A program made the position numbers. From a plasmid, in the NCBI RefSeq assembly GCF_056746865.1, contig NZ_JBWKMP010000005.1: a DNA stretch of 64,000 bases; one strand, 5' to 3'. Of the stretch, positions 24,001 to 30,000 are shown piece by piece; within the stretch, counting starts at the first letter, position 1, and each line of letters opens with the position of its first letter.

Positions 24001-27000
24001 CAAAGTGGCTTCGGTGAATAATGGCGGTGGCGTTGTTTTCTTCTCATTCACAACCACTTCTTTTGTCGTCACTGTTTCTCCTGTGCGAATTTTACAGAGA
24101 AGATCAAAAGCGGAATCATCATTTTCGGCTTCTGATTCCTCATCCCCGGTATTTTCCTCACCAAGAAACGCTTCAAATCCGCTGTCTGTTGTTTTCCTGG
24201 CACGGGCATAAAACGACTCATCACCACACTGAATGGCAACGGATACTTCCTGGTATGTTTTTTCAGGCATGAACTGAACAAGATAGTGTTGTGCGATTGC
24301 CAGGTAAACATTGCGCTCGTCACTGCTCAGCGCGTTTACATCCGGTACGTTAACGGTCGGGATTATCGCCGTATGCGCAGTCACTTTCGCACTGTTAAAC
24401 GCCTTGCTTTTACGTGTCGAATCAACGTCCAGTGGCTGATCGAATACTGACTTCAGGGCATCGAGAACCTGTGGTGCTTCGCTGAATTGTTCATCAGAAA
24501 GATATGAGCAATCTGAACGGTTGTAAGTAATTGCTTTGTATTTTTCACGTAGCTGCTGTGTGATATCCAGCGTTTGTTGTGCCGTCATTTTGAACTTCTT
24601 GTTCATGTACTGCTGAAGCCGGACCAGGTTAAAGGGCAATGGCGCAGCCGTTTTTTTATCGTCTGTTGCTGCTGCTTCAACTGTCGCTGGTTTTCCTGCA
24701 AGGGAAGCCGCTGCTCCATTCGCCCACGCCTTATCAAGTAATTTACGGTCTGTCAGTGGTGCGAACTCACCAGGTTTCCAGTTCGCCCTGATAACATCAA
24801 CGCCGCGTTGAAAATGCCCGGTCATGGTGTAGTAGAAACTGGATTTATGATTCTTGTTGGCACGGGTGCGATTTACTATCAGGCCAAGAATAGGCGTCTG
24901 AACACGCCCGACCGAAAGTGTCCCTTTATAGCCTTTAGCCCGTGCCGGGATCGTATAAGCACGCGTCATGGATAAACCGTATATCGCGTCGGCTACAGAA
25001 CGCGCCAGAGCCTTGAGATAGAGTCCTCTGAAGTCACGGTTATTTTTGGGATTTGCCAGTGCCTTTTTCACTGCCGGAAGGGTGTTGTCGTTGATCAGAA
25101 CGCGCTTAACGGGTTTTGTGTTGCCTGCATATTCCAGGACCTCATCGACAAGTAGCTGTCCTTCGTCATCTGGATCGCCAGCATGAATAATTTCGGTCAC
25201 ATCGGCACGCCTGATAAGCTCAATAATCGTTTTAACTTGTTTTGCGGCGCTTTCTACTGGCTGGTATTTTACGGGATAAAGACGCAAAGGGAGTGTTTCA
25301 ATCTTCCACTCTTTGTATTCAGGATTATAGTTTTCGGGGGGCTGTGATTCGATAATATGACCAAAACAGTTAGTCACAATAGTATTATCACTTTCAAACC
25401 AGCCATCATGACGGGTAAAATTGCCACCAAGCGCCTTAACAATATCATTCGCTACTGCGGGTTTTTCTGCGATAAAAAGTTTCATTTTGTTATCCTTTAC
25501 ATTGAATTAATCTTTTGGCACAACGGATAGCACGTTCTTCTGATACTGCCTGTTGCCAGTTATCTTCACTTACTGGATGTCTGAATCTGCGTTCACAGCC
25601 ATTAAAAGCAAAAATCCCCTCACGGTTAAGTATATTAGTTGCAATATCCTGGTCTTTAATTCTCAAAAAGGCTGTTACGGCAAAACCAGAATACGAAGAA
25701 ATTTTTGAAATGATGCATTCATCAGCTTTTATTAACGCGGCAAAAGGAACTATCTTTTGATGACCACACGAAATCAGAGGGAGTGTGTGAATATCATAAT
25801 AAGCTATTGAATGACAATCCATGCGGGTATCATCAATAGCTGCCAGCCAGAATCCTGTCTGGTCTTTTATTTTTCTGCTAATATCTGAATCTGAAACACC
25901 AGGATTTAATAAATATCCACCATAACAGACATGGAAGGGGTGAGCAGATTCATCAATATCAGGAAGTTCTTTTACCGGATTTTCTTTCCAGTCCTTCAGA
26001 ACACCGAATTCAAGAGCATCCAGCAAAAACTTTCGTTCAAATCCATCAAGCAATGCATATTGCATGTTAAACCTCTCAAAGAAGCTCTGATTTGTTGACC
26101 TCATGGTGAACCAGTTCACCATTGCGTAAGACAAACAGGTAAGAAAACTTTCTTTCCTTATCTTTCAGTCAGTTTTTGTATTCAGAAAGAATAAACACCC
26201 AGTCATCGGTGCTGTAATGAGATGCGATGACTCATTATCTTTTTAGTGATGAGTTGATTATTTTTAAAATATGCCTGCCTTTAATTAGCATGTTTCTGGA
26301 AACAGCCTGATTACGAATACCTCTCATCTGGTCAAACTGATAGGTTAAATCATGTTCTTTTCGTGAAAGTCCAAGAGTGGCTCTTTCATTATCCATCAGG
26401 ACTGAAATTGCAATATATTCTCCAGATGCACACCAGTCTGCATAACTGGCAACGCAATGTTCCATCTCCTGACCTTCCTGACACAGAGCATCAAATGTAA
26501 TTAATTCATTTACACCGTTATCAACTTTCTGCCAGTTTATCCCAGTTCCTTTCCATTTTGGGATTACGGGAATAACGTTATTCTTCACTTGTCGCGTCCA
26601 TTCATCAGATAGTCTCCAGAAAGAAGGCCACTCCTGGTTTTTATGAATTAACCGTTCTTCTGCTAACAACCAGTCAATTGCATGACACAACTGATTCGTT
26701 TCCATTTCCCAGCGTGATGTTTGCCTGGATTCAGTATTACGGTCATAAAAGCCAATGTTTTTAAATAAATCACGATGATATTCTAGCCATTTTGAGCATA
26801 TACGATAAATATCATTTTCTTTTTCTGAGTAAGCTCGAATGCTAATATAATCGATAATCCAGTAAATTGCTCTCACAGGATAGTTCTTGATAAGTGGATG
26901 GCGTAATAATCTGACTGTAAATCTGAATGATGCATTATCATGTTTATCATTTAAAGCATATACTAATGACAAACTAACATGTCGTAAACTTCTGAACTCA

Positions 27001-30000
27001 CCATAACTAAGTTTGCAGGGAAAACTGATTTTTTCATATAACTCTTTTGTCTTTCCAGATAGTATAAACTGACCATTTTTATGTTGTTGTCTTAGACGAC
27101 CAACCATAGGCCACAATCCGAAAAAATCCATATCATTCACAATATGGATTCGCTTTGAAAAATCCAGATAGTCCTCAAATAATGCCTGACGAATTGAATT
27201 GTAAGCTATCGAACAATGTGAAGCTCTGGCATATTGTGCAAATATCTTTTTATCTACCATTATCCATATAGCTTTACTCAATGCTTTTGAAGCATTAAAT
27301 TCATTATCCACCCCTATAATTTTTAATGCTCTCTGATAAATTTTGTTTTTTATCTCTGCGAGTAAAATATGTCTGCTGATATATCGTGTATTATAGGGGT
27401 AGTTGAATGATGCTATTTTACCAAGGCAATGAACAATGTCATGTATTCCATACTCATATGAGTAATATACATTGGATGGATATAGTGTGGAAATATAACG
27501 ACTCTCACTGTTTTCCTCTTCCTCTCCAATGCGTAACAAATAGAGTTTGTCTTCAATTGAATATCCAGCCTCAATCAATGATTTGATGATGTAGCTAATC
27601 GCATATTTTAACCAGTCGTCCATGTCGTATGCAGATTTTTTAGACCAGAATAAAAAAATCTTACCAGGAAATGAATTTCTTCTGGTCCATACCCCAGTGT
27701 GCTTATCTCTTAGCTTGTATCCCCACAAAGTGATTTTGTTATTCTTTTTGTTTTTTCTAATACGAAAAACGCCACAAATGATAATGGAGATGTACTTTTC
27801 ATTCTCCTCTGTTTTTACAAGACGAAGCCCCCCTGTATTTTGATAGATTTTAAAAACATCATGCAACGTAAGAATATTATTGTCCCTTGTCTGTTGATTA
27901 ATTACATACATGCCGCCCCCTGTTAAAAAGAAGCCTTTAATATTGCACAAAGATAAAAAGACAGAATCATGGCAAACCAAAAGAAGAATGCATTTTCTTG
28001 CCCCCTTAATTTCTGATACGCCATTCCCACGGTGGAACCGGATTTGCATCGGCCCACAAACCACGTTTTTGTTCCTGCGCTTCCCGTTGCAGAGCCGGTA
28101 ATGACTCATCCACGTTGTAACGTTCATATACCCATGCAGCGCCAGACTGAACCATAAAGCGGCTGGCATCCGTGCCGTTCGTCGTGAACACATGACCGAT
28201 AATGCGTCCGTAGCGGTCTTTATGTGAATAAGAGACTGTCACCTGTTTACCTGCAACCAGAGTTTTAAGCTGACTAGTTGACCAGCGTCCAAAAGGTTGT
28301 TTCTTTTCAGGGGCATCGATGTTTATCAATCGGACTCGGATCGGAACTTCATACACAACAATTTTTGCGGGTAGTGTTTTAATTTCTATGGTGTCGCCAT
28401 CGAGAACGCGAATAACTTTCCCCTGAAGAATTTTCTGGTTAAATGTATAAGGTATTCCACCTGCATTTGCAGACTGAAAAGCGGTAAGCAGATAAATAAA
28501 TATTGTTAATAAGATTTTCATAAAAGATTAACGTTAATTTGTCTGTGCAATGGATAGAGCGTTATTCTTATTTTCTTCCTGCCGCTTCATCGAAAAATGA
28601 TGATTTTCCTACTGCTGCGGCATCATACTGAAATGAATATCCAAAATCATCGTCATGCTCAAAACCTGTATTTTCTCCATTTTTTAGTCTGGAAAGAATA
28701 ATCTCAAGTTGACTGATTATATCTTCCCTTTCACTATGACGAGTGCCTTGTAAGAGAATAGTTACTTGTTGCAAAGGATATGCATGTTCAATCCATGCCT
28801 GGCTAGGTCCAGAGTGCGTTGTATATAAATTTTTTTGTGCCGAAATATTATTCAGAAAACAGTTTAAGTCATCATTGGAATAAATTTCTTTAATATTGTT
28901 GATGTTGGATGTTAGTTTTACAAGTTGGAATGGTGGAGAATTTTTGTCTTCATTGTTGTCTCCTTTATCGTATTCTGGAAACACAATTAACAAAGGTGCA
29001 CCATTAGTTCTCTTCATAAAACGGGTTACTAGCCGCCCAATATATTTATTGGACATATGCTGTTCAATGTCCAGGACAGCATATTCCTCCGCTGGGAACA
29101 TTTTGTTTTTTTCGATGGATTTAATTTTTCTGGTAAGATGAATGTTTCTGATAAGCAAACCTACTATCAGGAAGTAAATAAATATCCAGAATAAAAAATC
29201 ACTCTGTAGTTGTTCTATCATAAGTGAATCCTCTAATTTGTTAATGGACAAATCATTACCCGTTCATCAATGTTTGTAGGAAGTTCGCCAGGAGTAGGGA
29301 CGCGTTCTCCTCGCTGGGCGGCTTGTGCCAGTGTTCGTAGCAGCAACACGCTGGCATGAAATATGGCCTGTTCTTTTGTGGCTGCGCTTGTTTCCAGGTC
29401 GAAATCACTCAGAGTCACAACGACTTGCCCGTTTCTGTTCTCGACCGTTGCCGGGTAGGGAACAAAATAGGGAGCGATTTTGCTGGTTTGCTTGCGTCGG
29501 GCATCGAGTTTACTGACAAGTTGATAAGCCCGAAGGTGTGTGTATCGTTTCAACATGTTCAGGGAGCGATGGCCTGAAATAGCGGCAACCTCAATGACGT
29601 TCAATGTACCAAGTTCGAAAAATCGGCTGATAGCCTCATGACGGAGGTCATGAAAATGCAAGTTTTCTATCTTCAGTTCCTGAAGTGCTGTTCGCCAGGC
29701 ACTTTTGAATCCCGAAGAGGTATAAGAAAAAATATTACCGTTAAGCTGTGTCGGCAGCATTTGCAGGTAATTACGGGCTTTCCTGGATAGCGGAACATCG
29801 CGTGGAGCACCGTTTTTGGTTGTTGGAAGATGAGCTACCCCATGTTGCAGATCGACGTGTTCCCAACGCAATGACAAGATTTCACCTTGTCGCATTGCTG
29901 TTTCCAGCGCCAGATGAAAAATGACGTAAAGAGCCTGATTTTTTTCTTTGAAATACCGCGAAAGTCGGCGTTCTTCTCCTGAAGTCAGGCGACGATCGCG

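Follow-up and report, generated by a model that had tools for sequence, protein, structure and literature searches.

The AT-rich gene block beside topB in an mcr-1 IncI2 plasmid: probably an accessory backbone module with an exchangeable slot

Introduction

Four minus-strand genes lie between the topoisomerase gene topB and the shufflon recombinase gene rci in a 64,000-nt stretch of an IncI2 plasmid (contig NZ_JBWKMP010000005.1 of RefSeq assembly GCF_056746865.1; the whole stretch is called the window here), and they raise the question of whether they form a foreign island or a part of the plasmid's own backbone. The first-pass annotation of the block (25490-29251) had favored the former, on the grounds that the genes looked markedly more AT-rich than their surroundings and that a large PcfJ-like protein beside an exported nuclease could make up a defence, anti-defence, or inter-bacterial competition module. 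In this study, we arrived at a different view, to which we assign a probability of about 0.6: the block is not a foreign island but represents, in IncI2, an accessory module that is conserved among conjugative plasmids, has topoisomerase III (Topo III) and Hha as its anchors, and contains an exchangeable slot. The description 'island or defence module' would thus be corrected to 'conserved accessory backbone with an exchangeable slot'.

Plasmids of the IncI2 and IncX types, which are responsible for the spread of mcr-1 and blaNDM, carry these genes. Plasmid Topo III proteins, e.g., TraE of RP4, are products of accessory type IA topoisomerase genes in the transfer region and are not known to be needed for basic laboratory mating. 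In IncX backbones, sfx or hns lies immediately downstream of topB, topB-sfx is a syntenic IncX module, and topB has been proposed to relieve topological stress linked to silencing by H-NS and Hha (PMC11796372). In IncX2, a nuclease gene comes after taxB, and the function of the plasmid topB has not been elucidated (PMC4207749). The first-pass annotation had described the combination of a large protein and an exported nuclease as having no assigned role in conjugation. None of the four genes has such a role in the literature searched, where pcfJ is named as a landmark only and where IncI2 nuc/topB and plasmid thermonucleases receive passing mentions. Epidemiological papers routinely quote the block as a downstream flank in the form '...pap2-yddA-hha-topB-pcfJ'.

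Results and discussion

A gene order shared with IncX plasmids

The order nuc-slot-topB-hha-hns is common to IncX1, IncX3, and IncX4 plasmids, in which it comes after the genes for the type IV secretion system (T4SS) and the coupling protein. The IncX backbone, taxB-(ParB-like/thermonuclease)-...-topB-hha-hns/sfx, agrees with the window in both order and orientation, with nucleotide identities of 79-92% for nuc and 84-87% for topB, and orf191 is found in IncX4 and IncX1 as well. Across IncX and other IncI2 plasmids together, the topB genes are 84-95% identical to that of the window. The IncI2 module differs from that of IncX in following pil/shufflon/rci instead of VirB-type T4SS genes, in starting with orf217, and in lacking hns behind hha. 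Its slot is occupied by PcfJ and orf191, as against an AAA ATPase in IncX3 and DUF6012 with small open reading frames (ORFs) in IncX1. This synteny with IncX1, IncX3, and IncX4, and the position of PcfJ beside topB in unrelated plasmids, argue against the separate acquisition of the block as one island. The genes concerned, from the upstream to the distal end, are the following.

29233-30357, minus strand: rci, shufflon recombinase (from annotation); the upstream neighbor, 11 nt before orf217, at the junction with the pil/shufflon genes
28568-29221, minus strand: orf217, predicted membrane-anchored protein (ORF; 'hypothetical protein' in an identical plasmid)
28006-28521, minus strand: nuc, thermonuclease homologue of 171 aa (ORF; Pfam SNase)
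26235-27911, minus strand: pcfJ, 558 aa (ORF; PcfJ domain)
25490-26065, minus strand: orf191, 191 aa, acidic (ORF; its stop lies 4 nt before the topB start)
23320-25485, minus strand: topB, plasmid type IA topoisomerase, Topo III (so annotated in an identical plasmid); conserved anchor of the proposed module
23045-23251, minus strand: hha, gene of a nucleoid-associated modulator (from annotation); downstream of topB, at the distal end of the proposed module

The four minus-strand genes are present where the first-pass annotation placed them, and an identical plasmid is annotated alike, with the minus-strand order pil, pilV/shufflon, rci, orf217, thermonuclease, PcfJ-domain protein, orf191, type IA topoisomerase, and hha. 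All genes from rci to hha are co-directional, with gaps of 11, 46, 94, 169, 4, and 68 nt. Because neither promoter-like sites (22 against 19.6±4.2) nor terminator-like sites (11 against 6.3±2.5) clearly exceed the number expected from shuffling, the site scan gives no basis for operon boundaries; no RNA family of Rfam was found in 23000-30600.

The window derives from an mcr-1 IncI2 plasmid (MOBP, MPF_T). A 4.1-kb query from this region is 100% identical to E. coli pFORC_081_2 and also to many other IncI2 plasmids; 2344 PLSDB records match a part of it and 432 cover at least 80%. Just past hha, on the plus strand, are mcr-1 and pap2; mcr-1.1 (541 aa) and pap2 occupy 19829-22278, between the relaxase gene and the hha-topB module.

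The exchangeable slot between nuc and topB

The interval from nuc to topB exchanges cassettes, namely PcfJ, orf191, DUF6012, a 134-aa gene, and an AAA ATPase. In IncX plasmids the slot holds either the AAA ATPase, or orf191 with DUF6012 and small ORFs, or orf191 alone. The exchange is also evident within IncI2, where the block's middle varies: plasmid pC21-1 is 98.9% identical to the window over nuc, orf217, and rci and 94.5% over topB, and yet the pcfJ segment (26129-27922) is cleanly absent from it and orf191 is replaced by a non-homologous DUF6012 gene accompanied by an extra 134-aa gene. The similarity between orf191 and DUF6012 amounts to a BLASTP E value of 0.098 over 19 residues and an hhalign probability of 0.1%, i.e., the two are not homologous, and PcfJ has no profile similarity to the IncX3 AAA ATPase. 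A search for repeats flanking the pcfJ cassette returned short, low-identity matches, none of which stood out. DUF6012 and the 134-aa protein are also present in the slot of an IncX1 plasmid, and the AAA ATPase, a protein of 420 aa, occupies the slot in IncX3 and IncX1. The deleted locus tags given in an IncX3 deletion study (PMC11880322) do not identify the nuclease or ATPase gene among them, and that study is not counted as evidence on either gene here.

Linkage of PcfJ to topB

Full-length PcfJ homologues with 27-68% identity to the protein of the window are found no more than one gene away from a type IA topoisomerase gene in eight of ten distinct contexts, the window included, and in the remaining two context types it is hha that adjoins PcfJ. 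The contexts with topB outside the window are the following.

Yersinia IncX-like plasmid: SNase-PcfJ-topB-hha-hns (68% identity)
Salmonella pil/shufflon plasmid: SNase-PcfJ-SSB-topB (42% identity)
Proteus plasmid and a metagenomic contig: PcfJ-topB-hns (35-37% identity)
P. aeruginosa p1011-KPC2: TrbM-PcfJ-topB-ssb (about 30% identity over the C-terminus)
Serratia pE36_3: VirD4-..-PcfJ-orf191 homologue (53%)-topB
Two metagenomic contigs: topB adjoins PcfJ (27-28% identity)

All PcfJ contexts read are conjugative-plasmid backbones or plasmid-like contigs, and Hha adjoins topB or PcfJ in IncX and in several of the PcfJ contexts. As PcfJ, orf191, and topB stand together in distant plasmids, with the same order in Serratia, the order in the window appears from sequence comparison to be old and recurrent. 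This PcfJ-(orf191)-topB linkage is not described in the literature searched, and it is a testable lead. A bolder interpretation is that PcfJ and orf191 are dedicated partners of Topo III and constitute an undescribed system for single-strand-containing or interlinked plasmid DNA in transfer or replication, in which PcfJ would represent a new fold with a Glu/His/Cys center and the AAA ATPase and DUF6012 cassettes would be alternative solutions. We put it forward tentatively, as the odds are against it; if true, it would explain a very common and ignored part of plasmid backbones and offer a possible target against plasmid spread.

Several points weigh against a module anchored on Topo III and Hha. 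The sample of contexts is small (ten distinct types) and not random. The adjacency to topB is to be read as a correlation only; some PcfJ contexts have no topB in view, and IncX3, IncX4, and pC21-1 have topB but no PcfJ. The operon structure is inferred, and PcfJ carries no recognizable DNA-binding or ATPase motif. In addition, the literature searched contained no functional data on PcfJ, orf191, or orf217.

Base composition

The GC content of the block is 36.8% compared with 42.5% for the window, a value as low as which is found in only 1.1% of equal-length windows. The block is therefore AT-rich, as the first-pass annotation had noted, but it is neither uniform nor the lowest region, since 36.0% is reached at 11.5-15.3 kb around oriT (the origin of transfer) and nikA. 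Gene by gene, nuc (44.4%) is close to topB (44.8%), followed by orf191 (38.0%), pcfJ (34.8%), and orf217 (34.4%). Among 55 ORFs, orf217 and pcfJ rank fourth and sixth lowest, and the core genes below orf217 are those at 13117-13518 (32.8%) and 41583-42119 (33.5%) and nikA/mobC (33.6%). The contrast with the surroundings thus holds for two genes relative to their immediate neighbors but not relative to the backbone's own range. Furthermore, PcfJ genes are 5-10 GC points below the adjacent topB in six of seven other plasmids. Given that nuc stands at 44.4%, that core transfer genes are lower still, and that PcfJ genes are low elsewhere, composition is no proof of recent acquisition; the low GC content goes with the PcfJ gene family and marks no recent arrival. 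Overall, the block has a composition largely within the range of the backbone and consists of conserved accessory genes, the conservation being one of synteny and not of function. The stretch at 11500-15300, which is the most AT-rich of the window (down to 35-36% GC), holds the inferred oriT, nikA/mobC, and TraL-like leader genes.

The PcfJ protein

The protein of about 558 aa with a C-terminal EMEHCVASY motif is indeed encoded at 26235-27911, and the motif falls within EGQEMEHCVASY at residues 478-490. A longer pcfJ ORF of 652 aa, overlapping nuc, is unsupported, as the homologues have about 550-560 aa. The sole family match is to PF14284 (5.9e-7, 29.8 bits; residues 457-536 on model positions 58-137 of 147), which leaves all but some 80 of its 558 residues unmatched. 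Among 1.84 billion representative proteins scanned, 215 relatives were identified at E of 0.001 or below, and the PcfJ domain was matched at the same threshold by 51 of 52 aligned homologues. In the 52 full-length members, W75, W438, E479, C486, C494, T512, and Q528 are invariant, and G480, H485, Y490, Y499, R510, and N534 are nearly so. The protein is basic (isoelectric point 9.3), with a terminal tail rich in Lys and Arg, and lacks any hydrophobic segment.

The AlphaFold model of PcfJ is a confident one (mean predicted local distance difference test score 88.6, predicted template-modelling score 0.76) and suggests an N-terminal β-rich domain, a long helical middle, and a small α/β C-terminal domain. 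In our reading of the model, residues 467-557 would have the order β-α-α-β-β-β-α, which resembles the first two-thirds of the GNAT fold; no GNAT Pfam match was present among the PcfJ homologues. We also considered E479, H485, C486, and C494 as a single zinc site and rejected it, because C486 and C494 are predicted to sit at opposite ends of a helix and would be unlikely co-ligands. Neither a profile search of the PDB nor a Foldseek search with the model (E of 0.001 or below) identified a PDB relative, the PHROGs gave one marginal match of unknown function, and NCBIfam and PADLOC gave none.

The pcfJ gene occurs at a coverage of at least 80% in 447 PLSDB records, a count dominated by near-clonal mcr-1 plasmids. 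In two plasmids of IncI2 size, NZ_KX034083.1 and NZ_CP117565.1, the pcfJ match is split in two with an IS3-family transposase annotated under it. These insertions indicate that the gene is dispensable for plasmid persistence, and the interrupted pcfJ is consistent with a non-essential accessory role.

The orf191 protein

The gene of about 191 aa is present at 25490-26065, and its start is backed by homologues, as MQYAL opens 22 of 23 aligned sequences and the exception is frameshifted. It is a recurrent companion of plasmid topB. No match was obtained in Pfam, NCBIfam, PADLOC, or the PHROGs, and the alignment profile retrieved nothing from the PDB. Overall, the family and structure searches suggested for the block were informative for nuc (SNase) and PcfJ (PF14284) but gave no family for orf191 and orf217 and no informative PDB relative of PcfJ or orf191.

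The nuclease and its possible roles

The nuc product matches Pfam SNase (PF00565) at 7e-26 over all of the model (positions 1-107 of 107) and, in phmmer, S. aureus thermonuclease chains at 3e-8. The residues kept relative to the S. aureus nuclease are D43 (D21 in S. aureus), R64 (R35), D69 (D40), E72 (E43), Y104 and R106 (Y85 and R87), and Y132 (Y115). T41 of the S. aureus enzyme, a ligand that binds through its backbone carbonyl, corresponds to A70. The N-terminus, MKILLTIFIYLLTAFQSANA followed by GG, with the boundary between ANA and GG, looks signal-like (Sec-type) by inspection. Consequently, the earlier description as a signal-peptide thermonuclease fits, and nuc can be regarded, as judged from its sequence, as an SNase-type nuclease with intact catalytic residues and a signal-like N-terminus. 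The SNase domain and the Ca2+-binding and catalytic residues are features shared with S. aureus nuclease A, as would be the putative N-terminal export signal of nuc.

Among plasmids, nuc is a very common accessory gene. With tblastn, relatives were found in more than 5000 PLSDB records, 88% of them conjugative among the matches listed, and they occur as a lone gene in many replicon types. Plasmid SNase homologues are widespread in IncF, IncK/I, and IncX, and we take ParB of RK2/RP4 and Nuc of R64/ColIb to belong to them. However, nuc is far below the NCBIfam equivalog cut-offs of EcnA (NF047969; 43 against 180 bits) and NucI (NF047694; 41.2 against 250). An SNase gene with about 58-60% amino acid identity lies directly upstream of hha, near repA, in an IncF plasmid, and another with the same range of identity lies between excA and trbA in an IncK/I-type plasmid. 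The nuclease-hha pair in IncF means that the pairing reaches beyond topB-carrying plasmids.

Does the nuclease make the block a defence system or a weapon, as had been suggested? If so, the targets of the exported nuclease and PcfJ would be rival cells or the DNA of phages or rivals. In line with this, nuc has a domain-level match to the PADLOC candidate model C3a212 'SNc+LTD' (2.2e-11) and matches to phage nuclease PHROGs, and the neighboring slot is variable, with an AAA ATPase there in IncX3. However, the PADLOC match covers the SNase domain only, and orf191, PcfJ, and orf217 have none at E of 0.1 or below (PADLOC-DB 2.0). Phage DNA in the cytoplasm is out of reach of a non-specific nuclease that has crossed the inner membrane, neither an immunity gene nor a domain for toxin delivery is apparent, and related SNase genes stand alone in the plasmid records and replicon types mentioned above. 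Moreover, the conserved partner of PcfJ is topB, not the nuclease. With no PADLOC model matched beyond one domain-level nuclease hit, the proposal of a defence or competition module loses its footing, and we consider a defensive or competitive function very improbable.

A different role for the exported nuclease may be sought at the cell surface, where nuc and orf217 would serve the pilus or mating apparatus, rather than DNA topology, by removing DNA from the periplasm or the cell exterior near the type IV thin pilus and the T4SS (e.g., during liquid or biofilm mating), with pcfJ and orf191 as unrelated passengers. In IncI2, orf217 and nuc come directly after pil/shufflon/rci and are conserved together with rci between lineages, at the 98.9% noted for pC21-1, while the slot downstream varies; in IncX, nuc comes after the T4SS and coupling-protein genes. 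In the rhizobial plasmid pLPU83a, up-regulation of the tra genes extends to a thermonuclease gene located next to traG (PMC13055273). However, SNase genes are also found away from transfer genes, as in IncF with nuc beside hha and repA, orf217 is absent from IncX, where none of the small ORFs preceding nuc is related to it, and the deep PcfJ-topB linkage is left unexplained. As an account of the whole block this is unlikely, whereas a role in pilus function and extracellular DNA for nuc and orf217 alone is plausible.

The orf217 protein and a possible role in establishment in the recipient

A gene with one N-terminal hydrophobic segment is present at the place of the '227-aa membrane-anchored protein' of the first-pass annotation, but a length of 227 aa is obtained only from an upstream TTG. 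In the protein, here orf217, this hydrophobic segment (about residues 8-25) is followed by a basic stretch and a linker of variable sequence. The C-terminal domain of about 75 aa (window 28568-28795) is conserved, with the pattern AYPLQQVT.LQGTRHS ... HDDDFGY.F, in which PLQ..T..LQGT and HDDDFGY.F are invariant. It is shared, at 55-65% identity, with proteins of Burkholderia, Ralstonia, Cupriavidus, and Variovorax. The protein has no match in Pfam, NCBIfam, PHROG, or PADLOC, and its alignment profile found nothing in the PDB. The small ORFs upstream of IncX nuc have no homology to orf217. The gene is present in 501 PLSDB records at a coverage of at least 80%, a number dominated, as for pcfJ, by near-clonal mcr-1 plasmids. 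In the one context read, a Ralstonia plasmid, the orf217-type domain adjoins a DUF5710-Toprim gene and KfrB/LPD 'polyvalent protein' genes. The IncI2 plasmid has a DUF5710 gene of its own at 55529-56320.

The company of the orf217-type domain in the Ralstonia plasmid bears on a further explanation, in which PcfJ, and perhaps orf191 and orf217, act in the recipient, as proteins either translocated by the T4SS or expressed early, and protect or process the incoming plasmid in the manner of ArdC, primases, or polyvalent-protein domains. It would also suit this explanation that in IncX-like, Pseudomonas, and Serratia plasmids pcfJ comes shortly after the gene for the coupling protein, that PcfJ is basic with its Lys/Arg-rich tail, and that the contents of the slot change from one lineage to the next, a behavior typical of conflict genes. 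However, the position of the block does not favor such a function. In RP4 and R64, transfer into the recipient begins with the oriT side that faces away from nikAB. In the window, nikA and nikB are at 13887-18538 on the plus strand (nikB at 14225-18538), the TraL-like leader genes are on the other side of oriT, and the block is beyond the 3' end of nikB. If the direction of transfer is as in RP4 and R64, the block is outside the first-transferred region next to oriT and, at 7-11 kb past the end of nikB, would enter the recipient among the last. In addition, no anti-restriction or anti-defence family was matched in Pfam, NCBIfam, or the PHROGs, and the stable association with topB, hha, and hns suggests a housekeeping function for the DNA of the plasmid itself. 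Establishment or anti-defence in the recipient is therefore a doubtful explanation, although less so than the surface and defence roles considered above.

A proposed role for the module

The proposed accessory module anchored on Topo III and Hha has the order exported nuclease, variable slot, Topo III, and Hha (plus H-NS in IncX), with all genes in the same direction and at the distal end of transfer or pilus genes. Its function is most likely plasmid DNA handling. PcfJ, a basic protein with a Glu/His/Cys/Cys cluster in its small α/β C-terminal domain, and orf191 may be cytoplasmic proteins that work on plasmid DNA together with Topo III or as its helpers, and a likely setting would be the unlinking or processing of single-strand-containing intermediates in conjugative or vegetative replication. 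Nuc would be a non-specific Ca2+-dependent nuclease of the periplasm or the extracellular space, and orf217 may keep its conserved domain attached to the inner membrane on the cytoplasmic side. All of these genes are presumably accessory, aiding plasmid fitness or transfer in some conditions without being essential.

Comparison with known systems

Much of what the block contains is known. Hundreds of deposited plasmids carry an identical sequence, the genes have annotations, named families account for two of the four, and no new kind of system is demonstrated. PcfJ of the Enterococcus faecalis plasmid pCF10 (PF14284) has in common with the IncI2 protein the C-terminal PcfJ domain, the location on a conjugative element, and the proximity to DNA-processing and coupling genes. 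However, the N-terminal β domain and the helical middle of IncI2 PcfJ are without family assignment, and the proteobacterial clade has a neighborhood of topB, SSB, and Hha that is not described in the literature searched. The IncI2 topoisomerase differs from plasmid Topo III proteins such as TraE of RP4 in that pcfJ and orf191 accompany its gene recurrently.

TnpB-encoding elements elsewhere in the window

Apart from the block, the window contains two copies of an IS200/IS605-type element at about 1225-3163 and 5939-7865, which are 4714 nt apart and identical over the stretches reported. Each copy encodes a 402-aa TnpB RNA-guided endonuclease (NF040570, 7.9e-117). A family of 278-nt repeats (82-96% identical) is present at 3165-3442, 3898-4175, and 7868-8145, with one member directly after each IS200/IS605 copy. 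The repeats lie upstream of small ORFs, on the side of the plasmid that would enter the recipient first, and they might be single-strand promoter-like or IS-target elements.

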